From a virus (lineage: Duplodnaviria > Heunggongvirae > Uroviricota > Caudoviricetes): a stretch of DNA of 64,000 nt. A program made the translations under genes and the position numbers. The notes under the pieces were generated by a model that did no database searches, was not told where the DNA came from, and saw only the letters and a program-made list of their open reading frames with translations. Below are positions 1 through 40,535 of the stretch, piece by piece (the first letter of the stretch is position 1; every line of letters starts with the position of its first letter). The DNA lies in IMG/VR virus record IMGVR_UViG_3300037067_004861, one strand, 5' to 3'.

Positions 1-65
1 GGCTATGCAATAGCTGCATTCGTTATAATTCTGGCAATTGACGTTAGCCATGCTCTTGCCTCTTA

Positions 66-312
66 TGATTGTAGTATCCCTGATTGTAGTATCCCTGATT
101 GTAGTATCCCTGATTGTAGTATCCCTGGTTGTAGTATCCCTGATTGTAGTATCCCTGATTGTAGTATCCCTGATTGTAGTATCCCTGATTGTAGTATCCC
201 TGGTTGTAGTATCCCTGATTGTAGTATCCCTGATTGTAGTATCCCTGATTGTAGTATCCCTGATTGTAGTATCCCTGGTTGTAGTATCCCTGGTTGTAGT
301 ATCAGGGAGTCC
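66..312. repeat. Tandem array of a 15-bp unit (gattgtagtatccct, with a G variant ggttgtagtatccct), about 16 copies arranged in a 75-bp higher-order period (DDDDG x3)
   Basis: Direct reading; ORFs 38..340(+) and 63..359(-) are periodic translations of this array. Confidence 0.9.
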
Positions 313-317
313 GGGAA

Positions 318-345
318 TCCTGGAATCCTGGAATCACTGATTCCT
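318..345. promoter_or_regulatory. Cluster of GGAATCC / GAATCAcTGATTC half-sites; member of the palindromic motif family GGAATCC-N-GGATTCC
   Basis: ggaatcctggaatcctggaatcactgattcc; related palindromes at 988, 1111, 4351 and 4946. Confidence 0.4.
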
Positions 346-514
346 AGAGGGTGACGCATACCTTGGCGTAGAAGCCCTCGCGTTCATCGTCTCCCTCTTG
401 ATAGGGGTCGATGATGAAACGAGAGGGGCCAGCCAACCACACTCCAACACCGCGTTGCAGTTCTTGACTGAGAACGGCGGCTGCCCGCCTAGCCTCATCA
501 TAGGTAGCGTACAT
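344..514 (-). CDS. Small hypothetical protein (about 56 aa); ends ...VTL* with GTCACCCTCTAGGA at the gene junction
   Basis: ATG at 514 preceded by aggagg-like RBS (ctaggaggaaagacc); same strand as neighbours; below the 60-aa ORF-track cutoff. Confidence 0.3.
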   Translation of the reverse strand: MYATYDEARRAAAVLSQELQRGVGVWLAGPSRFIIDPYQEGDDEREGFYAKVCVTL

Positions 515-525
515 GGTCTTTCCTC

Positions 526-855
526 CTAGAGGGTGACACGCAGGACGCCACCGTTAGGGCTATCGCTCAGAGCAATCATGGCGTATCGGCGTTGTCTACG
601 TTTGAAGTAGGCTATGGCCCGTTCGATCGTCCAGGGCTCCTGGAGCGGGATGCGGTAACTCTTGGGGCCGGCCTCAAGGATCATCGTGTTGGCTGTAACG
701 GTTGCGTTCATCGTAGTGCCCTCCAAGATAGACGTACTAACGGAAGAGGTGGTCGTTCCTAGCAAAAAAGGAAGCTTGGGCCCGTTTCTCTTCGGCACGC
801 AGGTATCGGGGAATCCTAGATTCACGACGTCGCTCGGGCAAGTAGCGGGCGACAA
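526..855 (-). CDS. Hypothetical protein; C-terminus ...RVTL*; stop is followed by a GGAGG RBS for the 344..514 ORF
   Basis: ORF track; GC-rich block; start uncertain (alternative frame 737..901 encodes a 54-aa membrane peptide coupled by ATGA to 898..1131). Confidence 0.35.
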   Translation of the reverse strand: MSPATCPSDVVNLGFPDTCVPKRNGPKLPFLLGTTTSSVSTSILEGTTMNATVTANTMILEAGPKSYRIPLQEPWTIERAIAYFKRRQRRYAMIALSDSPNGGVLRVTL

Positions 856-897
856 CCAAAGCTAGGACAGCCAAGATAGCGGAGACGGTCAAAGTAG

Positions 898-1131
898 TCA
901 TGGTTTGTCCTCCCTTTCTACTTCAACTATACCACGGAATCGGTGGTTGTCAAGTCTTTTTAAGAAAGAAAAGGATTTTAATATCCAAGAATCCGGGAAT
1001 CCCGGATTCTTTACAATCCTAGGCATGGGTGGATTGTTGTCGATCCATCCGGTGCAACCAGTCAAATCTTGGCAACCTATGCAACCTATGCAATCGGTGC
1101 AATCTCCACAATCCAGGATTCCCGGCTTCAC
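898..1131 (-). CDS. Cys-rich protein with CGDCTDCIGCIGC...GCTGWIDNNPP motif; related to 1468..1722 and 9517..9768; GTG start
   Basis: Shares the G[KC]TG[WY]xxNxPP tail with the other Cys-rich ORFs. The C-terminal 40 aa read through the palindromic DNA motif, so the reading frame or extent is doubtful. Confidence 0.3.
   Translation of the reverse strand: MKPGILDCGDCTDCIGCIGCQDLTGCTGWIDNNPPMPRIVKNPGFPDSWILKSFSFLKRLDNHRFRGIVEVEREDKP
988..1012. promoter_or_regulatory. Perfect 12-1-12 palindrome AAGAATCCGGGA-a-TCCCGGATTCTT; candidate operator
   Basis: Direct reading; belongs to the GGAATCC-N-GGATTCC motif family. Confidence 0.45.
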
Positions 1132-1411
1132 GGTTACATGCGTTTCTCGATTACACGCATCTTTGACGCTATTTTAATTGCTTCTTTTTTTCAAAAATGG
1201 CGAATCTTTGGGAATCCTTCGTAGCTGATTCCTGTTGAACGTCGCTAACGAGGCGACGGAGGGCCACTAATTCCTCAAGGCCCTGGGCCAAGCCCGCCCA
1301 GGTAGCTTGGCGAGGAGGAAGAGAGCAGACACGTTCGATGCGTTTACTGTCAATCATGGTACCCTCTCCCCTTCTACTCAACTCTACCACATTGCCCAGC
1401 CTTGTCAAGGA

Positions 1412-1435
1412 TATTCTGATAAAAATATCAGAATA
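1412..1435. promoter_or_regulatory. 10-4-10 palindrome TATTCTGATA-aaaa-TATCAGAATA next to a TTGACA hexamer
   Basis: Direct reading; intergenic between 1169..1408 and 1468..1722. Confidence 0.35.
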
Positions 1436-1467
1436 TCACAACCCAGGTTGCTATTATGACAATAATA

Positions 1468-1722
1468 TCATTTCCGTGGTTTGTTCCGATAGTAGCCCGT
1501 CTTGCCAACCAGCTCAAAACATTCGGCACAATCGACACAATCCACACAATCCTCACAGTCACTGCAGAAGTCACAATTGGTACATCTCTTGCATCGCTCA
1601 CTTTTGCTACAAAGTGTGCAATCCGTACAATCCCTACAACTAACACAACCAGCACAATTCTCGCAGTCCCCACAATACTGCGAATCCGGACAATCGAGAC
1701 ATTTGATATTAGTATCAGACAT
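1468..1722 (-). CDS. Cysteine-rich repeat protein, (DCxxC)n, about 24 Cys in 84 aa; C-terminal GKTGYYRNKPRK
   Basis: ORF track; CxxC periodicity every 3 residues; paralog of 9517..9768. Confidence 0.55.
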   Translation of the reverse strand: MSDTNIKCLDCPDSQYCGDCENCAGCVSCRDCTDCTLCSKSERCKRCTNCDFCSDCEDCVDCVDCAECFELVGKTGYYRNKPRK

Positions 1723-1786
1723 GGTACAATCCGTAAACAGAGAAAGAGGGGCAGCCTAGGTTTCCTAGGCTGCCCCTCCGAATGGG

Positions 1787-2821
1787 TTAGGCGTTGACTA
1801 CCTCTTTCGAGGCTTCCATAGCCTCCTGCAGAAGGGTATCAATCTCAACGTCGCCAACGTGTCGGCGGAGAGTGGCGAGGGCCGACGCCGCAATCTCCAA
1901 GGAGACGGCGTAATCGTCACAATCCGTCAACGTCTCCCCGCCCTGCCCGGTTGCCGCCAAGAGGACTCTCTTGACAATCTCCGATCGGGCCGTTTGGCCA
2001 CGGTCAACCGCCTGCTTGGGGGTAAGGCTCTTGGCCGTCTGGGTGGCCTCGTCCCCCTTGTCCTTGGGGGACATCACCTCATCCCACGCTACACGGAATA
2101 GGGGGCCGTCGCCCGCCGGGTAGTTAGCGTATTCCTTGCCAAACACGCCGAACAGACCGTTGATCTTCTGCCATTGCATCGGTGTGGATTTTGGCGAATA
2201 CACCGCTTTTTCCATTTCCGATTGAACGAATTGGGGCAGCCGGGCCAGGTTGGCACGAATCTGCACATAGCTCCGATTGGGGGCACCGGGGGTTTTGCCT
2301 TTGGTGTGGAAGATGCCGAGGATAGTGGCAATCTCCGCCTGCCCCTCTCCGATGCCAACAAGCTGCCGGATAGCCAAAAACTGGCTCCACTGGTCCAACG
2401 GCTCCCGGTCGGCGGCTGGGTCGTGGTCGATCCGGAGTCGGGTTTCCTCCGCTTCGGTGAGGCCCTTGTAAACGATACAGGGCACCTTCCCACCACCCAG
2501 AACCTCGGCGTAGGTGCCGGGCTCATTGTCCCGCAAAAATTGCAGGCTCTTGGCCCTCCGGTTGCCCCTCAAAACGAGATACTGGCCGTCGCTCTTCTCA
2601 CTCACCATAAGCGTCGAATCGGGCTGCCAGCCGTGCCTCTTGATGAGGTCGATCATGCCGGGAAGGTTGTAATTACGCTCGTCTCGGGGGTTGCCCCCGA
2701 AAATGAGGGCGTCAACCGGAACAAGCGTCGTCGTCTGCTTAGCCATTTCAATCACTCCAAACAAAACAAAGGGAACAAGGGGAACAAAGGGGAGAGGAAT
2801 GATATTATAATCAATCCTCAA
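1787..2821 (-). CDS. ParB-like N-terminal (sulfiredoxin-fold) nuclease-domain protein; likely true start at Met26 (about nt 2746, MAKQTTT)
   Basis: LVLRGNRR motif (ParB GxxRxxA box); GC-rich codon usage unlike most of the window; promoter-like TGATTATAATATC at 2800. Confidence 0.6.
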   Translation of the reverse strand: MRIDYNIIPLPFVPLVPFVLFGVIEMAKQTTTLVPVDALIFGGNPRDERNYNLPGMIDLIKRHGWQPDSTLMVSEKSDGQYLVLRGNRRAKSLQFLRDNEPGTYAEVLGGGKVPCIVYKGLTEAEETRLRIDHDPAADREPLDQWSQFLAIRQLVGIGEGQAEIATILGIFHTKGKTPGAPNRSYVQIRANLARLPQFVQSEMEKAVYSPKSTPMQWQKINGLFGVFGKEYANYPAGDGPLFRVAWDEVMSPKDKGDEATQTAKSLTPKQAVDRGQTARSEIVKRVLLAATGQGGETLTDCDDYAVSLEIAASALATLRRHVGDVEIDTLLQEAMEASKEVVNA

Positions 2822-3023
2822 ATTGCTGTATATCCTTACAAACGATCAGAACGTAAGAGGCCACGTATCCGAAAGCCGCCGATGCCAGGGCACGGAAGGG
2901 GTCAAAATCATTGTGAACGGCACTAACCGCGAAAACCGTCGACAACAGAGCAAACGGAAGAGTCGCCAAAATCGAGATAACCTGCATTGTCGGCCTCACT
3001 AGGAAAAGTGATACTATTGTCAA
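2811..3023 (-). CDS. Small hydrophobic hypothetical protein (two predicted TM segments)
   Basis: ORF track; minus-strand array. Confidence 0.35.
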   Translation of the reverse strand: MTIVSLFLVRPTMQVISILATLPFALLSTVFAVSAVHNDFDPFRALASAAFGYVASYVLIVCKDIQQFED

Positions 3024-3220
3024 TTGTTATCCTCACCAGTCACAACCCGGATAACCGGATGCCCATCGTCGAGCACGCCACTGGCAACAGAGGCTTGGCT
3101 AAGGCCGGCTGCAAATAGATCATCATCGGTATCATCCATGGAAACCGTTACAGTGCAGTCCAATTGCCACGGTTGCAACAATTGCAACGCCGAGAGTAGT
3201 TCGCGGTAGGTTGGCAACAC
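3020..3220 (-). CDS. Small acidic hypothetical protein
   Basis: ORF track; lies downstream of a consensus promoter at 3271..3298; 4-nt start/stop overlap with 2811..3023. Confidence 0.4.
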   Translation of the reverse strand: MLPTYRELLSALQLLQPWQLDCTVTVSMDDTDDDLFAAGLSQASVASGVLDDGHPVIRVVTGEDNN

Positions 3221-3270
3221 TTTCCGATACCCCTCTTGTGGGTGGTGTGGTAACTCTCGGCCTCTACTCC

Positions 3271-3298
3271 ATTATACCATGGCCTGGCATCGTGTCAA
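3271..3298 (-). promoter_or_regulatory. Sigma70-type promoter on the minus strand: TTGACA-16 nt-TATAAT
   Basis: Reverse complement reads ttgacacgatgccaggccatggtataat, with both hexamers consensus; upstream of 3020..3220. Confidence 0.65.
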
Positions 3299-3329
3299 GA
3301 GGAATTGTAAAGATTCCAGGAACCACCCA

Positions 3330-3668
3330 TTAGAGGGGTAGTTCTTCCACCAGCCACGAACTACTATCCTGATCGTAGGAACCGTTTTGATCCCCATGAT
3401 TGACAGCGTCGTAATTGCCGCGAAGAACGGAATCCCGGGCCTCATCGCTATGAGTGGCATAAACTGTGTAAACGGAATAACTCACACTTGGAACCGACAC
3501 GATGAAGCGCCTGAGTCCGGCAGCCTTGGCGAACCTCTCGGGGACGAACCGTGGGTTGGCTATCGAGGCCACGTCCATCACGGCATCGGCAATTGCCTGT
3601 TTGTTCATTTTATCCGGTTCATCCAGGATAATCCGAGCAAACTGCACTAAGTCTTTTTTCGTTAGCAT
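3330..3668 (-). CDS. Hypothetical protein (112 aa)
   Basis: ORF track. Confidence 0.4.
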   Translation of the reverse strand: MLTKKDLVQFARIILDEPDKMNKQAIADAVMDVASIANPRFVPERFAKAAGLRRFIVSVPSVSYSVYTVYATHSDEARDSVLRGNYDAVNHGDQNGSYDQDSSSWLVEELPL

Positions 3669-3672
3669 AGGT

Positions 3673-3948
3673 TCACTCCATATATTCGGAAGAATTGAGT
3701 GAGGCCGTTAAAGTCGCTACATCCGGAACCTTGAGAATCAAGAACCGCTCGATGTCCAGGGGCGACCATTCCTCGCCGGTGGCATCCTCAGTGATAGCCT
3801 GCACATTCCGCAAACCATGCAGCATCACTACAACCCTCAATGCCTCGCCGAGGGTCATGGACTCGATGGTGTGGGTGCTCTCGGCACCGGGCTGTTTGAG
3901 AGCGGAGCGGGATCGTTGGACGCGAAGAGAGAACCGTTGCAACGTCAT
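3673..3948 (-). CDS. Hypothetical protein (91 aa)
   Basis: ORF track; lies downstream of the promoter at 3999..4027. Confidence 0.4.
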   Translation of the reverse strand: MTLQRFSLRVQRSRSALKQPGAESTHTIESMTLGEALRVVVMLHGLRNVQAITEDATGEEWSPLDIERFLILKVPDVATLTASLNSSEYME

Positions 3949-3998
3949 CGTAGATCATCCTAGGATATGAGGAAGAGGGTGTTTGCCCCGACACCACT

Positions 3999-4027
3999 AT
4001 CCTACCATGGCTAGGGCCAGGTGTCAA
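3999..4027 (-). promoter_or_regulatory. Sigma70-type promoter on the minus strand: TTGACA-17 nt-TAGGAT; paralogous to the promoter at 3271..3298 (shared ACCATGGC...GTGTCAAGA context)
   Basis: Reverse complement reads ttgacacctggccctagccatggtaggat. Confidence 0.55.
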
Positions 4028-4081
4028 GAAGAAAACCGGTGGAATTGTTTGTTTCGATTCTAAGGGCAGTATATTCTACAG

Positions 4082-4172
4082 CCAGGTGCCAGGTGCCAGG
4101 TGTCCGGTGTCCGGTGTCCGGTGTCCGGTGTCCGGTGTCCGGTGTCCGGTGTCCGGTGTCCGGTGTCCGGTG
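4082..4172. repeat. Heptamer tandem repeat: (ccaggtg)x3 then (tccggtg) about x10
   Basis: Direct reading; ORF 4021..4479 is its translation artefact. Confidence 0.9.
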
Positions 4173-4220
4173 GGATTATGACAACATAGGTTTGATATTT
4201 TACACACCCTTTAGCGGGGT

Positions 4221-4350
4221 AGGGATTGTAACAATAATAGGGATTGTAACAACAATAGGGATTGTAACAATAATAGGGATTGTAACAATAATAATGATTT
4301 TAAGGATTGTAGTGATTTTAAGGATTATTACGGTTATTACGGTTGATTTT
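4221..4350. repeat. 18-bp tandem repeats (agggattgtaacaataat, x4) followed by shorter gattttaaggatt and ttattacgg repeats
   Basis: Direct reading. Confidence 0.85.
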
Positions 4351-4372
4351 AGAATCCAGGATTCACTGATTC

Positions 4373-4476
4373 CTATACGCACACCTACCCCGGCGCTCCC
4401 GGGCAGAACGAGAATCGTACTTTCAAAGCATAACTATACGCACACCTACCCCGGCGCTCCCGGGCAGAACGAGAAT
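4373..4476. repeat. Two copies of a 43-bp direct repeat (tatacgcacacctaccccggcgctcccgggcagaacgagaat), each holding a CCCGG-cgctc-CCGGG hairpin, separated by about 20 nt
   Basis: Direct reading. Confidence 0.85.
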
Positions 4477-4718
4477 TGAAAATGTAAAGAAAATGATGAT
4501 TTTGAAAATTGATTTTCAAATCATAATGTCATAATAATGAGAACACTATTGGACAATGGTTAATCTCTTATGACGCTAGAACGCCGTCTCACGCCCTCCA
4601 ACGCCCCAATGGCTCCCAAGACCAAAATGGGAAATGGGCTCCCTAGGCACGCAGCTAGGGCCCTTAAAAGGGAATCCGTAGCCGTGGCCACGGAAGCCGC
4701 GAGGGGTAGCCGGGAAGT

Positions 4719-4812
4719 CCATAAATAATAATACTTTTTCCTATTCCCCTATAGGGCATTTTTATTAGAAAGAGCCCTATAGGGGAATAGGAAAAAGTAT
4801 TATTATTTATGG
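4719..4812. repeat. Perfect inverted repeat with 38-bp arms (ccataaataataatactttttcctattcccctatagggc) and a 17-nt spacer; cruciform or hairpin-forming
   Basis: Right arm 4774..4812 is the exact reverse complement of left arm 4719..4756. Confidence 0.9.
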
Positions 4813-4945
4813 AGAGGCTAAGTCTAGGCTACGGCTAGACTTACGGAATTATACTGTTTTTATGTCCACCTTCACATAACTATTGTCCAATAGTGAACTC
4901 ATCATTATTTGGCCTTTTAGAGCTTTTTAGAGCTTTTAACGAAAA

Positions 4946-4974
4946 GCAGGAATCCAGGATTCCTGGATTCCTGC
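4946..4974. promoter_or_regulatory. Palindrome gcaGGAATCCaGGATTCCtggattcctgc; strongest copy of the GGAATCC-N-GGATTCC motif
   Basis: Direct reading. Confidence 0.45.
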
Positions 4975-4994
4975 AACAATTAAACTAAGAATTA

Positions 4995-5354
4995 TTAAAC
5001 AATTCTTTTCGTCAGCTCAGGAAGTGCAACCTCAGTAATAAGATTATTCTCAACTAGGAGGTCAACAATCTCAATGGCTACGCCGTCAACAAACGCTTCT
5101 TCATTAAGAACCACTTCTTTTAAAAGCATGGGGTTGCGATCCAAGACTCCGTGAATCAACTCGTGGATCAAGGATTCAAGGATGCACCGATTCGGTTGCT
5201 CAGTACATACTCTAATGGTCCTGCTATTATAATCAATATAACCTAAGTACTTCTTGTCTTCACAGTTAATAACCGTGGGTACTTCAGCACTCTGAGCCAC
5301 ATATTCAATAGTGTAATCCACACCCCTAATAGTAATAGCAGTAGGTAGTTTCAT
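4995..5354 (-). CDS. Putative zinc metallopeptidase (HExxH: LIHELIHGV), ImmA/IrrE- or SprT-like
   Basis: HELIH motif in a 119-aa protein. Confidence 0.4.
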   Translation of the reverse strand: MKLPTAITIRGVDYTIEYVAQSAEVPTVINCEDKKYLGYIDYNSRTIRVCTEQPNRCILESLIHELIHGVLDRNPMLLKEVVLNEEAFVDGVAIEIVDLLVENNLITEVALPELTKRIV

Positions 5355-5877: not shown

Positions 5878-5952
5878 TCTTAAACCTTAAACCTTAAACC
5901 TTAAACCTTAAACCTTAAACCTTAAACCTTAAACCTTAAACCTTAAACCTTA
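5878..5952. repeat. Heptamer tandem repeat (aacctta), about 10 copies; overlaps the 3' end and stop of ORF 5936..6106
   Basis: Direct reading; a shorter copy sits at 6106..6125. Confidence 0.9.
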
Positions 5953-6106
5953 AAACTGTCTCGGCGTTCCAATAGTTTCCGCTATAACCTTCGTAATAAC
6001 GATACAGAATCGTTACAAACTGCAGCCACCACCATTTACCATCTAAATACAGTGGTAAGAACAGGAACTTATCCCTGATTTTAATATCACCGTCTTTGTA
6101 TTTCAT
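5936..6106 (-). CDS. Small hypothetical protein (56 aa), paralog of 5696..5872
   Basis: Manual translation MKYKDGDIKIRDKFLFLPLYLDGKWWWLQF... Confidence 0.4.
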   Translation of the reverse strand: MKYKDGDIKIRDKFLFLPLYLDGKWWWLQFVTILYRYYEGYSGNYWNAETVLRFKV

Positions 6107-6122
6107 TCTTAATCCTTAAACC

Positions 6123-6503
6123 TTAATCCATAATCCTGGGACCATTGGCTACGTCATTATATTCCACTAACTTATAGAGCTTGGTGTTACCCTTATTATG
6201 GCTTTTCAAATACTCTTCGGTAAGAGCAGATGCCTCTTCATAATCGTTACCTCGCCATATACAAACACCGTCTTCATTAGTAATAACGTAATTATTGCTT
6301 TCTATTTTAAGATTCCGATGATCCACTACCTTAGCGTAACAGGTTTCCATGGTAATATTGGCCTCTGAGAAGACTGCCTCTAGGCTAGCATCAGCACATG
6401 CCTGCCCGAAACTATCGTAGAGGTGGATAGCTAATGTACTCTTACTAAAATAGTCACGAACTATTACGGCATAAGTCTTACCATTATTATGCCTGTCTTT
6501 CAT
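6123..6503 (-). CDS. Hypothetical protein (126 aa)
   Basis: ORF track; 4-nt overlap with the GNAT gene. Confidence 0.45.
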   Translation of the reverse strand: MKDRHNNGKTYAVIVRDYFSKSTLAIHLYDSFGQACADASLEAVFSEANITMETCYAKVVDHRNLKIESNNYVITNEDGVCIWRGNDYEEASALTEEYLKSHNKGNTKLYKLVEYNDVANGPRIMD

Positions 6504-6985: not shown

Positions 6986-7159
6986 TTAATCTGAGAACGG
7001 GAAGAAGAAGTAATTGAAAACACTACCTATTGTCACACCACAAAGCATCCCATTAATGGTTGGCCAGGATAGTTCCCCTCGCAGCAGGTAAAAGCCGCAG
7101 CCACATAACACCACGGAGAACAACGCAATCGGTAGAATAGTTAGTAGTTTCTTATTCAT
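6986..7159 (-). CDS. Small membrane or lipoprotein-like protein (57 aa; signal-peptide-like N-terminus, VVLCGCG)
   Basis: Manual translation; below the ORF-track cutoff. Confidence 0.3.
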   Translation of the reverse strand: MNKKLLTILPIALFSVVLCGCGFYLLRGELSWPTINGMLCGVTIGSVFNYFFFPFSD

Positions 7160-7162
7160 TTT

Positions 7163-7232
7163 CTTGCCTTCTTAATCTTGCCTTCTTAATCTTGCCTTCT
7201 TAATCTTGCCTTCTTAATCTTGCCTTCTTAAT
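7163..7232. repeat. 14-bp tandem repeat (cttgccttcttaat) x5; overlaps the 3' end of ORF 7200..7511
   Basis: Direct reading. Confidence 0.9.
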
Positions 7233-7511
7233 CTGATCTTTGTTTTCAAAATCCTGATAATAATAGATTTTACCGTTTTCGTCCTTAATATAACCGGCTT
7301 CCGGAAATTCAAATACTCTTCCATCTTCTAGAGCCCCGGCGTCTTGGTACAATTCCGCAAGAAGTTTACTAATCTTCTTAATCTTTGATTTTAACATCTT
7401 GTCGTCAGCTAGAATATGATCTACGATCTCTCTTTCAAAGATATCCATAACAAGATAAGCACGGTCGGTCATCTCGTGATAGTGCCATCTATCTAGTGGT
7501 GTTTTATTCAT
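7200..7511 (-). CDS. Hypothetical protein; C-terminus is encoded by the tandem repeat
   Basis: ORF track. Confidence 0.4.
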   Translation of the reverse strand: MNKTPLDRWHYHEMTDRAYLVMDIFEREIVDHILADDKMLKSKIKKISKLLAELYQDAGALEDGRVFEFPEAGYIKDENGKIYYYQDFENKDQIKKARLRRQD

Positions 7512-9946: not shown

Positions 9947-10177
9947 TTACTTTCTAACCGCGAAGTCAAGGAAAAAGGTATCCAATCTCTCCCCCTCCGG
10001 AGTCCAGAACTCCATCATCCCGTTGATATAATCTAAACTAATCGAGGGAACCTTGTCTCCAACAATATAATCATGGTTATTGCCCTCTAATGCAGTTTTG
10101 AGAGTACAATCAAGATAATTGTAGCAAAGCTCGTCGATTAGTTCACACTCTTTGGAAGTGAAAAGCTTATCTAGCAT
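9947..10177 (-). CDS. Hypothetical protein, paralog of 10223..10441 (M[LI]DKLFT...)
   Basis: ORF track; N- and C-terminal similarity between the pair. Confidence 0.4.
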   Translation of the reverse strand: MLDKLFTSKECELIDELCYNYLDCTLKTALEGNNHDYIVGDKVPSISLDYINGMMEFWTPEGERLDTFFLDFAVRK

Positions 10178-10222
10178 AGCCTTATCCTTATTTTTAATCT
10201 TTGATATTAGTCGATGATATTT

Positions 10223-10441
10223 TTAGTCGATGATATTCAACTCAATCTTTGATCTCTTCAAGACTATGCCCTCATTACCACAGAATTCGAGGATTCCATT
10301 TTCATAGTCTACGTTAATCGAGGCAACAACGTAACCCTTCTTGAATCCACTAACGTCCTTTAATAGAGTACAACTGTAGAACGAGAATAGGCAAATACCG
10401 TGCTGGCCCCAGTCATCCCAAGTAAATAGTTTGTCTATCAT
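10223..10441 (-). CDS. Hypothetical protein, paralog of 9947..10177
   Basis: ORF track. Confidence 0.4.
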   Translation of the reverse strand: MIDKLFTWDDWGQHGICLFSFYSCTLLKDVSGFKKGYVVASINVDYENGILEFCGNEGIVLKRSKIELNIID

Positions 10442-10794: not shown

Positions 10795-11022
10795 TTATTT
10801 TACTTTCACAACTAAACCATTAACTATTGTCACTTGGGCATACCAGGAATGCGGAGCAGGGTACCATGGACCCTCGACTGCTACTGTACCATGATTGTTA
10901 CTATTATTATCAGAACCATTATTATAGTTTAATGGTCCAGGTTGGTAAACCCGTACTTCTTCACCGGAAGCCACGGCTTCTTTCAACGCTTTCTTCGTTT
11001 TGAAATTCTTAGTGCAGTACAT
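10795..11022 (-). CDS. Hypothetical protein (75 aa; Asn/Gly-rich middle)
   Basis: ORF track. Confidence 0.4.
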   Translation of the reverse strand: MYCTKNFKTKKALKEAVASGEEVRVYQPGPLNYNNGSDNNSNNHGTVAVEGPWYPAPHSWYAQVTIVNGLVVKVK

Positions 11023-11467
11023 TTAAAACACTCCTTGGCAGATGCTTAATTAGATAACGTGCTAATTTGTAGTCCAACACGGCGGAGCAATGCGGACATT
11101 TATAGCAGGGCTCTCGTTTATCGCATGTGCAAGGCGTATGGTAAGCCAGGACATACACATCCCTAACATTGTGCGAATAGTAAGGAGAATGGTAATGGGC
11201 AGCCGCGATACGTGTGGCTAAACTATATTTCTTGGCCAAGCGTGGGGAGATTTTAAGATCAATTCTCGTTGGCTCCAAGAGCAGACGCAGGTGCTCCTCC
11301 GCGTCTTCGAGGAGACTTGTAATACACTTGTATTTCTCCTGCTTTATGAAATCCTCGGAATCGCGGAATCCTAGATTCCTGTTGACCATACGCATTGTAA
11401 ACTCGGAGCCAAGAAAAAAGAAGAAATTGAGATGACATAAGGCATAGCGTTTAACTAAATCATTCAT
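11009..11467 (-). CDS. Hypothetical protein with C-terminal Cys/His cluster (HTPCTCDKREPCYKCPHC)
   Basis: ORF track. Confidence 0.4.
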   Translation of the reverse strand: MNDLVKRYALCHLNFFFFLGSEFTMRMVNRNLGFRDSEDFIKQEKYKCITSLLEDAEEHLRLLLEPTRIDLKISPRLAKKYSLATRIAAAHYHSPYYSHNVRDVYVLAYHTPCTCDKREPCYKCPHCSAVLDYKLARYLIKHLPRSVLNVLH

Positions 11468-19236: not shown

Positions 19237-19551
19237 TTAGGGTTCTGTGTGAGCATAGTGATGGATATCCATTAAAAGGTCTTCATTATCATTGATTTCA
19301 TTATCAATTTTGGAGATAATCCACTCTTTCCAATCGTCATGGTCCCAGAACCATTCTGCCGGAATCCGGGACTCCCCGAACTCAACATAATTGAAAGAGT
19401 AGTCGAGGATTATTATTTCATCGTCTAGGGGCGGTGTAGTATTATCGCCCTTGTCCCCAGGGATGACAGTGTAGATTATATCCAGTGGTATACGGCATTG
19501 CCAACCGATATAGATATCGTGCGTATAGGTGCCTATCATTTTACTACCCAT
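19237..19551 (-). CDS. Hypothetical acidic protein
   Basis: ORF track. Confidence 0.4.
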   Translation of the reverse strand: MGSKMIGTYTHDIYIGWQCRIPLDIIYTVIPGDKGDNTTPPLDDEIIILDYSFNYVEFGESRIPAEWFWDHDDWKEWIISKIDNEINDNEDLLMDIHHYAHTEP

Positions 19552-25395: not shown

Positions 25396-25773
25396 TTAAA
25401 TTAGAAACTCCGCTACTTCACAGAGTAGACTCTTGTTGGTTTGGCTGGCCCGGACGACGCGGAGACTCTTAACTTTGACAGTATTATCAGTGATGGGGCA
25501 CCGTCGGAGAACCTCAGCCCGTGCTTTCGGCATAAGGATACATTTCAAGCCAAGATGTGTAAGATGCTCCGAATCCTGGAGACGCCATTCTGGTTCAATT
25601 TCCGTGATTTCCGGAACGAAGGCCCTACCATAAATAAAGGGAGGCTTGTTCTCCGTAACCTCTACCGTGAGTATGGCTTCACCATTCATCGCCGTGAGAA
25701 TACTATCAACGGCTGGCACGGTAGACAATACATTGCGGTACTTCTCAGACCAATCACTTAGACTCATTTTCAT
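25396..25773 (-). CDS. Hypothetical protein
   Basis: ORF track. Confidence 0.4.
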   Translation of the reverse strand: MKMSLSDWSEKYRNVLSTVPAVDSILTAMNGEAILTVEVTENKPPFIYGRAFVPEITEIEPEWRLQDSEHLTHLGLKCILMPKARAEVLRRCPITDNTVKVKSLRVVRASQTNKSLLCEVAEFLI

Positions 25774-26302
25774 ATCTCCTAGCTAGTCTCTGACGAATCT
25801 TGGATACTTCACTTCGCGTTATCTTCAACGTCTTGGCTGTTTGGGTATCGGTGAGCCCGGAACGCCGGCACTCCACCACAGATCGTTCAATAGGGAGTCG
25901 GATAATAGCATCAATCGTGTCCTCGAACTCCAACTCATCGAATGGATTCGCGGATGCAATATCCTCTTCTATTGAAGAATACTTGAAATTAGCCTTGCGT
26001 TTCGGTGTCCGGATAGCAGCATTATTATGGATGGCTTGACAACAAGCGTCCTTAATCATGCTGCATAGGTATGATGTGATATTTCTATCATTACGTAGTT
26101 TGTGAACGGCTCGCACTAATCCTAGAGTCGCGGAATCCAGCATCTCCTCGTAGTCGTGCGTGAACCGGGAGTAGTATTCCGAGAACCTAAGAACATATGG
26201 CATATGACATAGGATAAGGGCGTCATAGTTTTCACTGTTCTTATATTCGATTAAAATATCATCGCTTGGGTGTGGCGGAAAAGTCACGTTTTCGTACATC
26301 AC
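25754..26302 (-). CDS. Sigma-70 family RNA polymerase sigma factor (phage-encoded; ECF-like, regions 2 and 4)
   Basis: Region 2: YEEMLDSATLGLVRAVHKL...SYLCSMIKDACCQAI. Region 4 HTH: LTDTQTAKTLKITRSEVSKIRQRLARR. Confidence 0.6.
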   Translation of the reverse strand: MMYENVTFPPHPSDDILIEYKNSENYDALILCHMPYVLRFSEYYSRFTHDYEEMLDSATLGLVRAVHKLRNDRNITSYLCSMIKDACCQAIHNNAAIRTPKRKANFKYSSIEEDIASANPFDELEFEDTIDAIIRLPIERSVVECRRSGLTDTQTAKTLKITRSEVSKIRQRLARRYENESK

Positions 26303-26707: not shown

Positions 26708-27394
26708 TTATACCTCTGCCAGAACTTCAAATTCCTTGCAACGCCACTTATCCCCGGCCCTATGGATATCTGTCTTCTTCGTCCTAACCTTGATAATGGG
26801 GCCACGAGAATTGGTGTTTGACTCTTGAAATTTCAAGACCATGGCAACCGTAGGGTAAAGATAGAGGCCAGGATGGCATTCGGTCTTGCAGGTGGAGAAA
26901 TATGGAGCCTTTACTTTATCTCCAACACTATAGCTACCACTATTCAAACGCCTTTTAGAGCGATAACCGATAATATAATCACCATCCTCCTTGAATCCTC
27001 TGTAATCTGTGTTTAATGTGTTCCTGGGATCAAGAGCAGTATGGTTGATGTTGGCCTCAGTGAGATTAATATCATAGAGGTCCGTTTCTTGCAGATAGGC
27101 TCCTTGGAGATTGGCTCCATGGAGGTTAGCTTCCCATAGATATGCGTATAGGAGATTAGTACCTTGGAGATTGGCCCCTGGGAACTGGGACTGCATTAGT
27201 ACAGCTCCTTGGAGATTGGCTCCTTGAAGATTGGCTCCTTGGAGATTGGCTCTTCGGAGATCGGCTTCTCGAAGATTGGCGCCTCGGAGATCGGCTTCCC
27301 GGAGATCGGCCTCATAGAGATTAGCTCTTTCTCCACCTTCTCTATCTTGTAGCCAAAGACTATGCTTTTCCAGGGCGACTTTAATATCAATCAT
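26708..27394 (-). CDS. Pentapeptide-repeat protein with a conserved unrecognised C-terminal domain (paralog 1 of 3)
   Basis: A(D/N)LxxA(N/D)L repeats; C-terminal DYRGFKEDGDYIIGYRSKRRL...TECHPGLYLYPT...KWRCKEFEVLAE is shared with 27408..28148 and 28599..29399. Confidence 0.7.
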   Translation of the reverse strand: MIDIKVALEKHSLWLQDREGGERANLYEADLREADLRGANLREADLRRANLQGANLQGANLQGAVLMQSQFPGANLQGTNLLYAYLWEANLHGANLQGAYLQETDLYDINLTEANINHTALDPRNTLNTDYRGFKEDGDYIIGYRSKRRLNSGSYSVGDKVKAPYFSTCKTECHPGLYLYPTVAMVLKFQESNTNSRGPIIKVRTKKTDIHRAGDKWRCKEFEVLAEV

Positions 27395-27407
27395 GGCTTA
27401 ACCCTTA

Positions 27408-28148
27408 TTATTCATACTCTGCCAGAACTTCAAACTCCTTGCAACGCCACTTCTTACCAGCCTTATGAATATCTGTCTTCTTCGTTCTTACCACAATTAT
27501 AGGGCCCCAAGAATTGGGATTTCCTCTTTGAAAGTTCAATACCATCTCTATTGTAGGGTAGAGATAAAGGCCCGGATGGCATTCTGTCGTACAGGTGGAG
27601 AAGTAAGGGGCTTTTACTTTCTCTCCGATACTGTAGTGACCACTATTCAAACGCCTTTTCGTCCGGTATCCGATAATATAATCACCATCCTCCTTGAAGC
27701 CTTTATATTCCATATTCAAGGTATTTCTTGGGTCCAGAACAGTACCGGTGATCCTGGCCCTGGTGAGATTAGTTCCGTAGAGGTCAGTTTCCTGTAAACA
27801 GGCTCCTTGGAGATTGGCTTCAGAGAGGTCAGCTCCCGATAGATGTGCGTATAGGAGATTTGCCCATTGAAGGTTGTTTTCTCGAAGGTTGGCCTGCATT
27901 AAGTAGGCTCCGCTGAGTGAGGCTCCTTTGAAATTAGCTACTTGAAGATCGGCCCCATGGAATGTAGCATAGGAAAGATTAGCATATTGTAGGTTGGCAC
28001 CACGTAGGTCGGCTTTGGTGAGATCAGCATTTTGAAGGTCAGCTTCGCGGAGATCGGCTCCTAGGAAATTTGCTCGCTCTCCGTCCGGATCACCGTGAAG
28101 CCACTTCCTATGGGAATCTAGAATGCCTTTAATAGTGATATCAATCAT
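27408..28148 (-). CDS. Pentapeptide-repeat protein with the same C-terminal domain (paralog 2 of 3)
   Basis: See 26708..27394. Confidence 0.7.
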   Translation of the reverse strand: MIDITIKGILDSHRKWLHGDPDGERANFLGADLREADLQNADLTKADLRGANLQYANLSYATFHGADLQVANFKGASLSGAYLMQANLRENNLQWANLLYAHLSGADLSEANLQGACLQETDLYGTNLTRARITGTVLDPRNTLNMEYKGFKEDGDYIIGYRTKRRLNSGHYSIGEKVKAPYFSTCTTECHPGLYLYPTIEMVLNFQRGNPNSWGPIIVVRTKKTDIHKAGKKWRCKEFEVLAEYE

Positions 28149-28151
28149 AAT

Positions 28152-28493
28152 TTAACCTTTAAAATCAATTACACCGTACTCAGAGTTGGTGATAGTGTAA
28201 TAGCAACGTCGGACGCCAACCATTTGCATAAATGATCGGCAGGTCCGACAGGGTGTCGCATTAGCGTAGTCACCATTCTTTAGGACACGGACGACATAAA
28301 CAATAGAACCCTTATCCAACTTCCTGCACAATCGGGCTTCGGCATGAGCCTGCGGTTCCGGATATCGGCAAGGCAGATTAGTTGATTTTACTATCGTTCC
28401 ATCGGCCCTAAGTCCCACGGCTCCGATACAATATCTCCTGATATCATTCTTTTTGATAGCAATACGTTCGGCTAATCGGAACATGCGTTTCAT
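28152..28493 (-). CDS. Cytidine/deoxycytidylate deaminase-fold zinc enzyme (CDA, dCMP-deaminase or TadA-like; 113 aa)
   Basis: Zinc-binding motifs HAE and PCxxC (HAEARL...ATPCRTCRSF). Confidence 0.6.
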   Translation of the reverse strand: MKRMFRLAERIAIKKNDIRRYCIGAVGLRADGTIVKSTNLPCRYPEPQAHAEARLCRKLDKGSIVYVVRVLKNGDYANATPCRTCRSFMQMVGVRRCYYTITNSEYGVIDFKG

Positions 28494-28518
28494 GGTTGTA
28501 TATCTTTAATAGTAAAAG

Positions 28519-28591
28519 TAGGACGGGAAGGAATCGAACCTTCGGCCACGACTTTATAAGAATCGCACTCTAACCACTGAGTTACCGTCCC
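28519..28591 (-). tRNA. tRNA-Ile (anticodon UAU)
   Basis: Hand fold: acceptor GGGACGG/CCGTCCT (G1-U72), D-stem ACTC/GAGT, anticodon arm CGATT-CTTATAA-AGTCG, T-arm GAAGG-TTCGATT-CCTTC. Confidence 0.75.
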
Positions 28592-28598
28592 ATTCCTT

Positions 28599-29399
28599 TT
28601 AGTATTCTGTCTCGGACAGGACTTCAAACTCCTTGCAACGCCACTTGTCTCCCGCCCTATGAATATCCGTCTTCTTGGCTTTCACTTTAATGATAGGACC
28701 TGCTAGGGAGGTACTGTGGGTATACATAAAGTTTAATACCATTTGAACCGTGGGGTAGAGGTAAAGACCTGGATGGCATGGAGAAAAGCTAATAGAGAAG
28801 TAAGGTGACGTAACTTTCTCCCCGACTGTGTATTCCCCATCGTTCATAAGACGCCTTTTCGTCCTGTATCCGATAATATAATCACCGTCCTCCTCAAATC
28901 CTTTGTAGTCTCTATTAGGCGTATTACTTGGATTGAGACAAGTGCGGATGAGATCGGCTCCTTCTAGATCAGCCCCATAGAGGGCAGTCTCAGAGAGAGC
29001 AGCCCAACGGAGATCGGCTCTTTGGAGATGGGCATTTTGAAGGTCAGCTTCTCGGAGATCGGCTCCTTGGAGATTGGCTCCTTGGAGATCGGCTCCTTGG
29101 AGATTGGCGTAACATAGTTTTGCATGTTGTAGATTCGCTTTTTGGAGACAGGCATATTTAAGATTGGCTTCTCGGAGATCGGCTTCTTGTAGATTGGCTC
29201 CTTGGAGATTAGCGTGACATAGGGTGTTCCCTCTTAAACTAGCATAAGAGAGATTGACTCCTGGAAGATCGGACCCATTTAGAATGACTCCTTGGAAATT
29301 TGCTCTTTCTCCACCCTCTATATTCTTGAGCCAAAGACTGTGCTTTTCCACGGTGGTTTTAATATCAATCATTGTATTTCCTAAATTAGAGTTATCCAT
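28599..29399 (-). CDS. Pentapeptide-repeat protein with the same C-terminal domain (paralog 3 of 3)
   Basis: See 26708..27394. Confidence 0.7.
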   Translation of the reverse strand: MDNSNLGNTMIDIKTTVEKHSLWLKNIEGGERANFQGVILNGSDLPGVNLSYASLRGNTLCHANLQGANLQEADLREANLKYACLQKANLQHAKLCYANLQGADLQGANLQGADLREADLQNAHLQRADLRWAALSETALYGADLEGADLIRTCLNPSNTPNRDYKGFEEDGDYIIGYRTKRRLMNDGEYTVGEKVTSPYFSISFSPCHPGLYLYPTVQMVLNFMYTHSTSLAGPIIKVKAKKTDIHRAGDKWRCKEFEVLSETEY

Positions 29400-38718: not shown

Positions 38719-39543
38719 CTAAACCTCTACATCCTCGAAAGGCAACACATAAGGGATACCCTTATCCCGTGCGGCCCGTTTGATATCAAAATATAAGTCA
38801 GCACTACTGATATTACCGTTCGCCCAGGCCAGGGCTCGTGTAACTAAACTATAACCAAGCGTATCCCCGATATGCTTTATCATATCCTGTACTGTCGATA
38901 CGGATTGACGTTTCTTGACGAAGGGGCGTTGGGCTGGCTTCTTCCCAACATCCAAACCCTTTTGCCCATTAAGAAGTGAAGTCTTGATTTTCCTAACAGC
39001 CGCGTACTGATCGTCTGCACTGTCGAGAGTAGCTAATTGCCTAATCTGATATTGATTCAGAACACCAGCCGCGGCCTCCTCTTGAATCTCTTTCGGTAGT
39101 TTGAGTAAGTCTAAACGCACCTGTACCCAAGACCGTGACTTACCCAATTCTTTAGAAATTTGATCTTGAATTAGACCTAATCCCCTTAGTTTCTCTACCG
39201 CATGAGCCTCCTGCAGAATATTCAGTTCTTCGCGTTGCAGGTTCTCCGTGAGGTTGAGTAATCGGGCTTGTAGTTCGGATAACCCCGTCCGAATCATCGC
39301 TGGAATCTCAGTCTTCTTCAAGACGCGGCAGGCAGCGAACCGTCTGTGACCAGCAATGATTCTATAATCATAATTGGGTCCACTAGTTAGCGGTTGGACA
39401 GTAATAGGGAACTGTAGACCATTACGGTCTATGTCCTTGGCTAATTCGGAGACACTAAGTAAGGAGATAGTACCCCTGCAATTGAAATCACTATCACTAA
39501 AAATACGATTGATAGGTATGTTTTTTACTTGATAATCATCCAT
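38719..39543 (-). CDS. ParB-like nuclease-domain/HTH protein
   Basis: YRIIAGHRRFAA (ParB box) followed by an HTH region; adjacent to the DNA methyltransferase. Confidence 0.6.
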   Translation of the reverse strand: MDDYQVKNIPINRIFSDSDFNCRGTISLLSVSELAKDIDRNGLQFPITVQPLTSGPNYDYRIIAGHRRFAACRVLKKTEIPAMIRTGLSELQARLLNLTENLQREELNILQEAHAVEKLRGLGLIQDQISKELGKSRSWVQVRLDLLKLPKEIQEEAAAGVLNQYQIRQLATLDSADDQYAAVRKIKTSLLNGQKGLDVGKKPAQRPFVKKRQSVSTVQDMIKHIGDTLGYSLVTRALAWANGNISSADLYFDIKRAARDKGIPYVLPFEDVEV

Positions 39544-39773: not shown

Positions 39774-40535
39774 TCATGCTCGGCTGATAGGAAGCCCGTG
39801 CTCCTCGGAGATGTTCCGGCAATAGGTGCTGTCCAGGTCGATCAGCGTGCATGACCGGCCGATTCGCTCGCAGACACGCAACGTCGTGCCGGTGCCGGCG
39901 AACGGGTCAATGACGGTGTCGCCCATCTTGGTGCTGAACAGCAAGCACCTTTCGACCAACCCCTCGTTAAGCTGTGTCGGGCACCATGGCCGGCGCTGCT
40001 TCGAGTTGCCGGTGACTCTCGGGAAGTCGAACACATCGCCCGGAACACGGCCTCGTGGATCAGCCCTCTTGTCTCCGTTCTCCTGCCGCCAGGAGGGCAC
40101 GCGAATGGCGTCGGGGTAGAACGCGGCATCGGGCCACCACAGACGAAGCAACGGGCGGTGGTTGTTCCCGAAGTCGTGATGGTTGTGCTGGCCGAACGTG
40201 AAGGTCTGGATGCAATTTTTGGCCGATAGTCGCGGGTTGGCTTTCAGTAGCCTCCAGACGATCATGCCCATGGCGAAACTCCACTTGGAGTTGTACGACA
40301 TCCACACCACGGGGGCCTTGCCAACGAACGCTTGAAGAAGCGTGTCGAGAAGATCAACATACTCATCGTCTGGCAGGTTGTCGTTGTGTTCGCTGTAGCC
40401 GAGCTTGATGTTGTCCGGCGGATCGGCGAAAATGCAATTCGCGTTCGGGATATGCTCAAGGACGTGAAGGCAATCGCCGTGGTAGAGATAGTGCATGATT
40501 AGTTTCCTAATTATCGAAACCCAGTAAGAGAGCAC
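39774..40535 (-). CDS. DNA methyltransferase (N6-adenine or N4-cytosine, beta class); conspicuously GC-rich gene
   Basis: Motif IV IFADPPDN precedes motif I IDPFAGTGTT; GC far above the surrounding genes, so the track shows many overlapping spurious ORFs. Confidence 0.7.
   Translation of the reverse strand: MLSYWVSIIRKLIMHYLYHGDCLHVLEHIPNANCIFADPPDNIKLGYSEHNDNLPDDEYVDLLDTLLQAFVGKAPVVWMSYNSKWSFAMGMIVWRLLKANPRLSAKNCIQTFTFGQHNHHDFGNNHRPLLRLWWPDAAFYPDAIRVPSWRQENGDKRADPRGRVPGDVFDFPRVTGNSKQRRPWCPTQLNEGLVERCLLFSTKMGDTVIDPFAGTGTTLRVCERIGRSCTLIDLDSTYCRNISEEHGLPISRA

Follow-up and report, generated by a model that had tools for sequence, protein, structure and literature searches.

Two described phage gene arrangements come closest to the locus reported here. 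The PeSL elements of T4-type phages, in which a stem-loop lies upstream of a near-perfect sigma-70 promoter, flank ORFans in hyperplastic regions (PMC2839356, PMC4122927). The host-takeover module of phage SPO1 is made up of small early genes in short operons with strong promoters and ribosome-binding sites (RBS), and phage sigma factors come later (PMC6873191, PMC13401047). The present locus lies near the left end of a 64,000-nucleotide stretch of DNA (hereafter the window) from the IMG/VR virus record IMGVR_UViG_3300037067_004861 (Caudoviricetes). It is a GC-rich block at positions 340-4030, which combines four near-consensus sigma-70 promoters, arrays of the 8-bp unit GGAWTCCN and the gene of a divergent ParB-type protein, here named ParB#1. 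An initial annotation of the window had seen in this block a separately evolved, possibly horizontally acquired cassette, transcribed early by the host RNA polymerase under the control of a dedicated palindrome-binding regulator. The observation itself is confirmed by the present analysis, and its interpretation is partly supported. With a probability of about 0.55, the block is a plastic early region read by the host RNA polymerase, in which terminator/promoter cassettes surround a conserved ParB-type gene and the arrays act as boundaries of the transcription units. It is most likely a variant of a known phage early-region layout and not a foreign island with a proven operator.

By analogy, the T4-type PeSL cassettes would provide the closest working principle, the SPO1 module being also close. 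In common with PeSL cassettes, the block has several similar near-consensus sigma-70 promoters, each with a Shine-Dalgarno sequence and a start codon, as well as small ORFans and a content that varies between relatives. It differs from them by the kind of phage (tape-measure protein, GpA-type terminase, ~85 kb), by a clear upstream palindrome at only two to three of the four promoters, and by stem-loops that are built from a phased 8-bp unit. With the SPO1 module it would share small early genes in short operons and a phage sigma factor for later transcription; no sequence similarity links the two, and no ParB-type anchor gene has been described for the SPO1 module. If this reading is correct, the block provides a compact map of the start of infection in an uncultivated lineage, with four strong host-type promoters and an orphan ParB-type protein, and its ORFans, about ten in number, become candidate host-takeover proteins.

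The comparisons below are based on 15 independent metagenomic phage loci, each with a homolog of ParB#1 (31-50% identity); these loci are designated by L numbers, as are the other assemblies of the same phage (L001, L019, L020 and L021).

Organization of the GC-rich block

The compositional contrast described in the initial annotation is real. In 300-nt windows, the GC content is 0.49-0.62 across positions 300-4050 and 0.35-0.45 beyond ~4200 (~42% elsewhere), which rules out a uniform composition. The mean GC content of third codon positions (GC3) reaches 0.59 in ten block genes versus 0.43 in 37 other genes, and the codons ATA, ACA, AAT and TTA are avoided by the block genes. The window encodes four tRNAs, tRNA-Ile(UAU), Thr(UGU), Lys(UUU) and Asn(GUU), which would read AUA, ACA, AAA and AAY. 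One plausible reason for this composition is that the block holds early genes whose codon use matches that of a GC-richer host, their translation taking place before phage tRNAs are available.

On the minus strand, which carries all the genes of the block, a gene at 5354..4995 is followed by array E, by ~900 bp of non-coding DNA and by promoter P4027, ahead of two ORFans of 91 amino acids (aa; 3673..3948, the first gene of the block) and 112 aa (3330..3668). Promoter P3298 comes next and precedes a 66-aa protein that weakly matches phrog_1057 (3020..3220), a 58-aa ORFan of hydrophobic character (2811..2987) and ParB#1, whose gene is followed by a strong predicted intrinsic terminator at 1779..1745. 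Further along lie an 84-aa Cys-rich protein with CxxC repeats (1468..1722, phrog_15341), a 12-4-12 palindrome, promoter P1408, the 62-aa ORFan g1357 (1169..1357), array C, a truncated Cys-rich open reading frame (ORF; 898-1131) and array B. The last promoter, P953, precedes three ORFans of 54 aa (737..901, with a hydrophobic N-terminus and a two-unit GGAWTCC element at 810-824), 61 aa (526..711) and 56 aa (344..514, the last gene of the P953 unit); array A overlaps the last stop codon, and an array of 15-mers follows. Homologs of g1357 outside this phage are absent among 5.8 billion proteins, and the small block proteins match no ribbon-helix-helix, helix-turn-helix (HTH) or other regulator family.

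On the basis of this layout, the block may be described as four cassettes, each composed of a palindrome or hairpin, a TTGACA-N16/17-TGnTAnnnT promoter, a short leader with an RBS and one to three small genes. ParB#1 would be the single conserved anchor gene, the remaining genes being phage-specific ORFans. The repeated promoter/terminator cassettes would supply the homology for gain and loss of ORFans, and this homology is the proposed reason why everything except ParB#1 differs between relatives. The order Cys-rich gene, palindrome, promoter is found twice, from the gene at 1468 to P1408 and from ORF 898-1131 to P953. The second of these ORFs looks like a Cys-rich copy whose stop codon has been lost, so that its frame extends across array B and P953. 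Several paralogs of this CxxC triplet-repeat family of small proteins (phrog_15341) are present around the block; those to its left take in window positions 1-52 and continue leftward (3400-4000 in L001 and 4027-4617 in L019), and long versions lie upstream of the ParB gene in L010 (4267-7783).

A duplicated gene junction, made of the protein ending VTL, a stop codon and an RBS, had also been reported in the initial annotation. At 522-537 the junction GTCACCCTCTAGGAGG is found unaltered, and at 340-355 a second copy (GTCACCCTCTAGGAAT) agrees with it at 14 of 16 bases and leads into the repeat array, not into an RBS. It was rejected as a sign of paralogy, the two VTL-ending proteins being without similarity.

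Host-type promoters and predicted intrinsic terminators

Across the 64 kb, the motif TTGACA-N13-15-TGnTAnnnT has four occurrences, where 0.08 would be expected. All four occurrences are inside the block, on the minus (coding) strand and ahead of gene starts. The two promoters first noted, P3298 and P4027, are both real and run along the minus strand (3298..3271 and 4027..3999); P1408 and P953 are added to them. P3298 (3271..3298) combines TTGACA-16-TATAAT with TG, agrees with the consensus at 12 of 12 positions and precedes a start codon by 51 nt, counted from the -10 element. The same distance separates the -10 element of P4027 (3999..4027, TTGACA-17-TAGGAT with TG) from its start codon. It is reduced to 24 nt for P1408 (1381..1408, TTGACA-16-TAGAGT with TG), and P953 (926..953, TTGACA-16-TATAGT with TG) also has a start codon 24 nt downstream. 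A TGGTAnnnT element and a downstream AGTAGA box are common to the four, and the ACCATGGC...GTGTCAAGA context shared by the two promoters first noted is visible in the sequence as described.

These are the only four consensus promoters of the window, and they stand 24-51 nt before start codons. They support in silico the claim that this compositionally distinct cassette is transcribed by the host RNA polymerase. The phage also encodes a sigma-70-region-2 protein (25754-26299, minus strand), which together with the consensus promoters fits a host-then-phage transcription programme. A sigma-70 region 2/region 4 protein is likewise encoded in the relative L004.

An upstream stem-loop is clear for P953, where it is formed by array B, and for P1408, whose -35 element is touched by a 12-4-12 palindrome (1411..1438) that includes the TGAT-N6-ATCA site 1417-1430. 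Upstream of P3298 there is no more than a short TTCC-T-GGAA, and P4027 has none, being preceded by heptamer repeats. Downstream of the ParB#1 gene, a 16-bp stem followed by a T-run (1745..1779, minus strand; -34 kcal/mol, z = -6.7) has the features of an intrinsic terminator, namely a GC-rich hairpin and a T-run after a stop codon. The same features are found at array E and are missing from arrays A, C and D.

Arrays of the GGAWTCCN unit

The initial annotation described a recurrent palindrome, GGAATCC-N-GGATTCC, at five sites. These five sites are real, but the element is a head-to-tail array of the 8-bp unit GGAWTCCN and not a simple palindrome. With up to two mismatches, the 15-mer GGAATCCNGGATTCC has 14 sites in the window against 0.25 expected, and 11 of the 14 are located in 306-4971; the motif is clustered, as claimed, and not evenly spread over the window. 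Exact copies of GGAWTCC number 11 in 301-5000 against 1.05 expected from the composition of that region, and pairs of units spaced by 8 bp number 15 against 0.36 expected, all other spacings giving 0-5. In each of the five arrays of at least three units, the GAATC units come first and the GATTC units after, so that every such array is also an extended palindrome. Further copies are found at 810-824, 11357-11379 and 19361-19375.

Array A (306..345) consists of five units and overlaps the stop codon of gene 344-514, and its RNA hairpin is not significant. Array B (988..1012) has three units forming a perfect 12-1-12 palindrome, 34 bp upstream of the P953 -35 element; its transcript gives a hairpin of z = -2.6, followed 14 nt away by a T-rich tract. 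Array C (1108..1125) has two units; it follows the stop codon of gene 1169-1357 at a distance of 43 nt and lies where ORF 898-1131 begins. Array D (4351..4373; three units) is in non-coding DNA, again with no significant hairpin, and array E (4946..4974, minus strand; three units) forms a 13-bp hairpin with TTTT, 20 nt after the stop codon of gene 4995-5354, which is terminator-like (-25.7 kcal/mol, z = -5.7). The promoters are free of array overlap: arrays come after stop codons or 34 to >300 bp upstream of a -35 element.

This positioning suggests that the arrays punctuate the transcription units, after the last stop codon (A, C and E) or between units (B). Once transcribed, arrays E and B may form hairpins of the terminator type. 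The remaining arrays would act on DNA, probably as sites for a phage-specific protein that recognizes single units, and the strict 8-bp phase, in direct and inverted orientation, points to such recognition. The proposal that all arrays are RNA hairpins was rejected for A, C and D (z ~0).

A more specific proposal, which is quite unlikely as formulated and compatible with the cassette reading, makes the arrays and the other tandem repeats sites for a small phage-specific protein that binds one unit at a time, as a repressor or roadblock for the early units. The phasing of the units argues for it, as do the variation of the array sequences between phages, which the small ORFans share, and the recurrence of GATTC-core arrays in L002 and L022. 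Comparable sites are on record: the native sites of omega consist of heptads (7 bp) whose orientation varies (PMC9499535), and parH is an array of tetramer boxes with AT-rich spacers (PMC3130281). The likeness to the omega heptads of pSM19035 and to ParG parH lies in the 7-8 bp head-to-tail units, direct and inverted, beside promoters. The systems differ in that the sequences are unrelated and that neither a ribbon-helix-helix protein nor a ParA was found here; the lack of a ribbon-helix-helix or HTH family among the small block proteins, and of ParA, counts against a small binder of this kind.

The distribution of the arrays in other phages is narrow. Three-unit GGAWTCC arrays were found in IMG/VR in only four unrelated contigs, which have neither ParB#1 nor any similarity to the window and were used as negative controls. 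Of 14 related loci, 12 have no such arrays and no more GGAWTCC than expected by chance. GATTC-core arrays are present in two relatives, as (TGATTCAT)x4 in the equivalent spacer of L002 and as (TGATTCC)x77 after the ParB gene of L022. The element therefore has some depth in the lineage, its period of 7 or 8 bp not being fixed.

The conserved ParB-type protein

The ParB-like gene of the initial annotation exists as an ORF at 1787..2821 that opens with TTG. An ATG at 2746 is the likelier start and gives a protein of 319 aa (1787..2746, minus strand) with a predicted N-terminal ParB fold, an HTH and a helical C-terminus. On the basis of the modelled fold, ParB#1 is confidently assigned to the ParB/KorB/Noc type. 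Its AlphaFold model (48 homologs) has a pLDDT of 92, and the best PDB matches returned by Foldseek are KorB, Noc, the Myxococcus and Caulobacter ParB proteins and Spo0J (E 1e-6 to 1e-5), in alignments of 210-238 columns covering the N-terminal domain and the HTH. Residues G61-N62-R63-R64, the counterpart of the ParB GERR box, are invariant in the 48 homologs, the family profile aligns with the GERR region of Noc, and the recognition helix PNRSYVQxRxNLARLP is nearly invariant across these homologs of 31-50% identity. ParB#1 resembles KorB of RK2, Noc and ParB/Spo0J (PDB 8qa9, 7nfu, 7bnk, 1vz0; PMC11790492) in its N-terminal fold, with a GxxRR box and an HTH. It differs from them by an identity of only 14-21%, a different C-terminus and the lack of any Pfam or NCBIfam match (PF02195, PF17762 and TIGR00180 included). 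The PHROG matches are weak, and a precomputed PF02195 match exists for a single one of the 48 homologs.

The family comprises 67 clusters at E <= 1e-30 among 1.84 billion representatives, and the nearest homolog is 50% identical to ParB#1. No relative could be confirmed when 185,579 species genomes were searched with a ParB#1 profile. No ParA-type family was found among the 70 ORFs of the window nor in the neighbourhoods of the relatives. The ParA-binding motif [LFI]G[KR]G[LFI] (PMC12704722) is absent from the three ParB proteins of the window and from all 48 family members. ParB#1 is therefore an orphan ParB, as Noc is. According to a survey, orphan ParB folds are widespread and uncharacterised in phages, and phage ParB folds are mostly fused to methyltransferase or DUF domains (PMC12704722). 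Like these proteins and like BFVD matches such as that of Vibrio phage VpV262, ParB#1 lies outside any parAB operon; unlike the fused folds of the survey, it keeps its HTH. The phage thus carries three ParB paralogs and no ParA. ParB#2 (38719-39543, minus strand) has the Pfam ParB_N, HTH_ParB and KorB domains and adjoins a methyltransferase gene, and ParB#3 (45822-46769, minus strand) passes TIGR00180. BLASTP aligns ParB#1 with ParB#2 at E = 5e-10 over the HTH (RSYVQIRANLARLP against RSWVQVRLDLLKLP), which contains an 11-residue insertion in ParB#1.

These properties bear on the dedicated palindrome-binding regulator proposed in the initial annotation. ParB#1 would be the obvious candidate, in a KorB-like regulon where it binds GGAATCC-N-GGATTCC, slides or spreads, and silences the early promoters at a distance. 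Sites of the ParB family are typically compact palindromes of 13-16 bp. The N-terminal domain and HTH of ParB#1, with KorB as best structural match, and the location of its gene inside the block holding most of the arrays are in line with this idea, as is the fact that KorB operators act 45 to >1000 bp upstream of promoters (PMC11790492). It is nevertheless improbable. The recognition helix is near-invariant in the 48 homologs, yet GGAWTCC is at chance level in 12 of the 14 loci, and this discrepancy makes ParB#1 an unlikely binder of the arrays. In addition, direct-repeat units are not needed by a symmetric dimer site, and ParB#2 or ParB#3 could be the binders instead. Nor do the arrays themselves establish a dedicated regulator of this kind, as they are placed off the promoters and in two cases fold like terminator hairpins.

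Related loci and the origin of the high GC content

The synteny around ParB#1 can be extended to the distant relatives. In the shared order, a non-coding spacer rich in repeats comes first, then at least one TTGACA consensus promoter and a set of small genes, with the ParB gene after them. Beyond the ParB gene, a non-coding gap is filled with tandem repeats whose period is 5-8 or 15-16 bp; a conserved 177-aa gene and the operon of the large terminase come next. In L002, TTGACA-N14-TGgTATACT stands at 4394, after the repeat spacer and before the first gene of a GC-richer block that ends with the ParB gene. L023 has TTGACA...CATGGTATAAT promoters at 7074 and 7423 ahead of its ParB gene, close to those of the window, and similar promoter arrangements are found in L008, L009 and L010. 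The large terminase or conserved late genes lie downstream in L002, L016, L017, L019, L022 and L023. The tandem repeats themselves differ: (TGAGCCAA)x5 and x6 in L002, (GCCTCTAA)x7 and (TAGTGGCT)x10 in L016. Very long heptamer arrays are located directly 3' of the ParB#1 homolog in L022, with (TGATTCC)x77 at 1742-2279, and in L023, with (CCCCGCT)x53 at 9989-10356.

The homology searches proposed with the initial annotation separate ParB#1 from its neighbours. While ParB#1 is conserved, the other block genes have no tblastn match in the 15 relatives, apart from the Cys-rich repeats in L010. The GC content of the ParB#1 gene is 0.50-0.62 in phages of 0.36-0.56 GC; an excess of +0.01 to +0.19 is observed in 13 of the 15 loci and in the window, reaching 0.19 in AT-rich phages and about nil in GC-rich ones. 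The genes upstream of the ParB gene are GC-richer as well in L002 and L010. Synonymous sites are long saturated at 40-50% protein identity. The GC excess must therefore be maintained and cannot be left over from a recent transfer. Judging from these sequences, the high GC is a standing property of the block and of the ParB#1 gene in this lineage rather than the mark of a recent acquisition. If the block is indeed an early region, the conserved excess in AT-rich phages offers a good case in which to ask whether early genes are tuned to host codon use.

The recent horizontal acquisition considered in the initial annotation is thus not supported. In its most explicit form, it would make the block an island or mobile cassette whose ends are marked by the inverted arrays at 306-330 and 4947-4971. 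The distinct GC content and codon use fit such an origin, and so do the arms of 25 nt, which are inverted, 88% complementary and 4.6 kb apart. Three datasets, moreover, yielded the GC-rich block as separate contigs of 3.7-4.1 kb, with the flanking arrays at their ends. However, tandem repeats are a usual assembly break point, the layout is found in the 15 loci together with the GC excess and is thus common to distant relatives, and the nearest ParB homolog is only 50% identical. No transposase, integrase or other mobility gene and no target duplication were found in the window. A mobile island is consequently regarded as very improbable.

Several observations speak against the block being an early region of cassettes bounded by arrays. 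No pair of close relatives differing by one cassette is available: L001 and L019 match the window at 99.9-100%, and the more distant relatives share only ParB#1 with the block. The promoters were assigned by consensus scans alone, and neither the ParB#1 gene nor the 1468-1722 gene has its own consensus promoter. Arrays A, C and D fold like shuffled sequence and have no T-runs, so that no more than two of the five arrays can be accounted for by termination. A three-unit array (11357-11379, GGAATCGCGGAATCCTAGATTCC) is inside the coding ORF 11009-11467, far from a unit boundary, and no array-binding protein was identified. Finally, the AAA codon is not avoided in the block genes, and the codon shift is therefore a general GC3 shift that is not specific to the set of phage tRNAs. 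The ORF next to the array-bearing one, 10795-11022, has a homolog in L002 that immediately precedes the ParB gene.

A genome-wide palindrome

Besides the GGAWTCC arrays, a second palindrome family is found near the ParB#1 gene. TGAT-N6-ATCA, a 14-bp palindrome of consensus TGATWTTAWWATCA, has 43 copies in the window, where 1.9 would be expected. Most of them are intragenic, and they are scattered over the whole genome at a density of ~0.7 sites per kb (for example at 1417-1430, 2800-2813, 4510-4523, 6076-6089, 31051-64, 52115-28 and 60078-91). Every one of the 15 ParB#1 loci is also enriched in this palindrome (3-23 sites, 0.1-0.6 expected), and the four unrelated viral contigs are not. One site (2800..2813) lies over a TATAAT, 54 nt upstream of the ParB#1 start; copies or near-copies are also found at other regulatory points of the block, abutting the -35 element of P1408, over a TTGACA at 3009-3022 and next to arrays B and D. 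Of 11 loci examined, 6 have a TGAT-N6-ATCA-like site at most 130 nt ahead of the ParB#1 start, where ~2.4 would be expected. The unit TGATTGTAGTATCC of the 15-mer array is itself a near-copy, one base off the pattern.

The conserved site and the conserved recognition helix make ParB#1 or a paralog a candidate binder. A Noc- or KorB-like clamp formed on TGAT-N6-ATCA by ParB#1, perhaps with its two paralogs, may be loaded at dozens of these sites and coat, organise or silence the whole phage chromosome; degenerate copies of the site would then make up the 16-unit 15-mer array that fences the block. The proposal is tentative and rather unlikely, and any protein common to these phages would fit the binding of this palindrome equally well. 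If true, it would amount to a genome-wide ParB system in a probably lytic phage devoid of ParA. In any case, a family which has kept its HTH, is always flanked by tandem repeats and co-occurs with an over-represented genome-wide palindrome leads to clear hypotheses. Candidate site sequences for ParB#1-#3 are GGAATCC-N-GGATTCC, (GGAATCCT)3, TGATTTTAATATCA and the 15-mer array.

Flanking repeats and genome context

The source of the window is an uncultivated tailed phage of ~85 kb with a GpA-type large terminase. Its phage identity is apparent from the gene content, which includes a DNA polymerase, a helicase, a primase, a ligase, an exonuclease and a tape-measure protein. The ENA contig L019, of 85,038 bp, belongs to the same phage and is 100% identical over window positions 141-4142. 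To the left of the window, it carries two Cys-rich genes, six conserved genes and then the large terminase, whose gene starts ~4.3 kb beyond the block, downstream, and is followed by the remaining late genes. According to this gene order, the block at 340-4030 is therefore the downstream end of a long minus-strand gene array. Among 50,697 GenBank phage records, no match was obtained for 300-5000 by megablast, or for ParB#1 or the DNA polymerase by tblastn, and the lineage is without cultured relative in this set.

The block is fenced by repeats on both sides. On the left, the tandem array of the 15-mer TGATTGTAGTATCCC (66..303) contains 15.9 copies, against 10.9 in the L019 assembly of the same phage. 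Of its frames, only the (GILQS)n ORF at 63-359 has a start codon, the GYYNQ frame having none, and the array is treated here, without proof, as non-coding. On the right, (GCCAGGT)x3 and (GGTGTCC)x10.6 occupy 4081..4172, where the L019 and L020 assemblies end. These heptamers belong to the ~900 bp non-coding stretch, which also contains an 18-mer repeated four times and followed by 9-mer repeats (4220..4344), array D, a direct repeat of ~56 nt in two copies 61 nt apart (4373..4489; 4373/4434), and nested inverted repeats (4531..4908). In the latter, arms of 32 nt at 4531/4877 surround arms of 45 nt at 4718-4813 with 96% complementarity, and ~150 nt of GC-rich sequence are enclosed. The nested repeats have no Rfam match; only the four tRNAs were matched in an Rfam scan of the window. 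Matches of the 45-bp inverted repeat to miRNA families were discarded as sub-threshold, generic hairpin matches.

The position of these repeats raises the question of a packaging or genome-end function, as pac or cos accessory elements or as a DNA-entry stop, or else of a role of ParB#1 in the partition of a plasmid prophage. For phage T5, a DNA-entry stop signal has been proposed. The ParB#1 gene and its arrays are always located a few kb upstream of the GpA-type large terminase, and many contigs end at these repeats. Such ends are however expected from assembly alone, and six or seven genes lie between the arrays and that of the terminase. Partition is further contradicted by the lack of ParA, by the absence of the ParA-binding motif in the 48 family members, by the absence of lysogeny and partition genes, including integrase and repressor families, among the 70 ORFs, and by the lack of homologs in the 185,579 species genomes. 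Both functions are accordingly held to be highly unlikely.

Outside the block, short perfect tandem arrays are also present between small minus-strand genes, namely (CTTAAAC)x10.9, (CTTAATC)x4.3 and a 14-mer repeated 5.2 times, at 5879-5954, 6108-6137 and 7162-7234. A second compositional outlier is a DNA methyltransferase of the CcrM/RsrI class (39774-40535, minus strand), with a GC of 0.58 and a GC3 of 0.76. The GAWTC core of the arrays is compatible with GANTC, the specificity of this enzyme not being readable from its sequence, and GANTC is not depleted in the window (310 sites against 252 expected). Homologs of the methyltransferase are found near the ParB#1 gene in L002, L004, L006, L016, L017 and L018. 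Lastly, three adjacent pentapeptide-repeat proteins (26708-29399, minus strand; Pfam PF00805, E = 3e-52) account for the 15- and 45-bp tandem repeats observed at 27204-27322 and 29009-29210.

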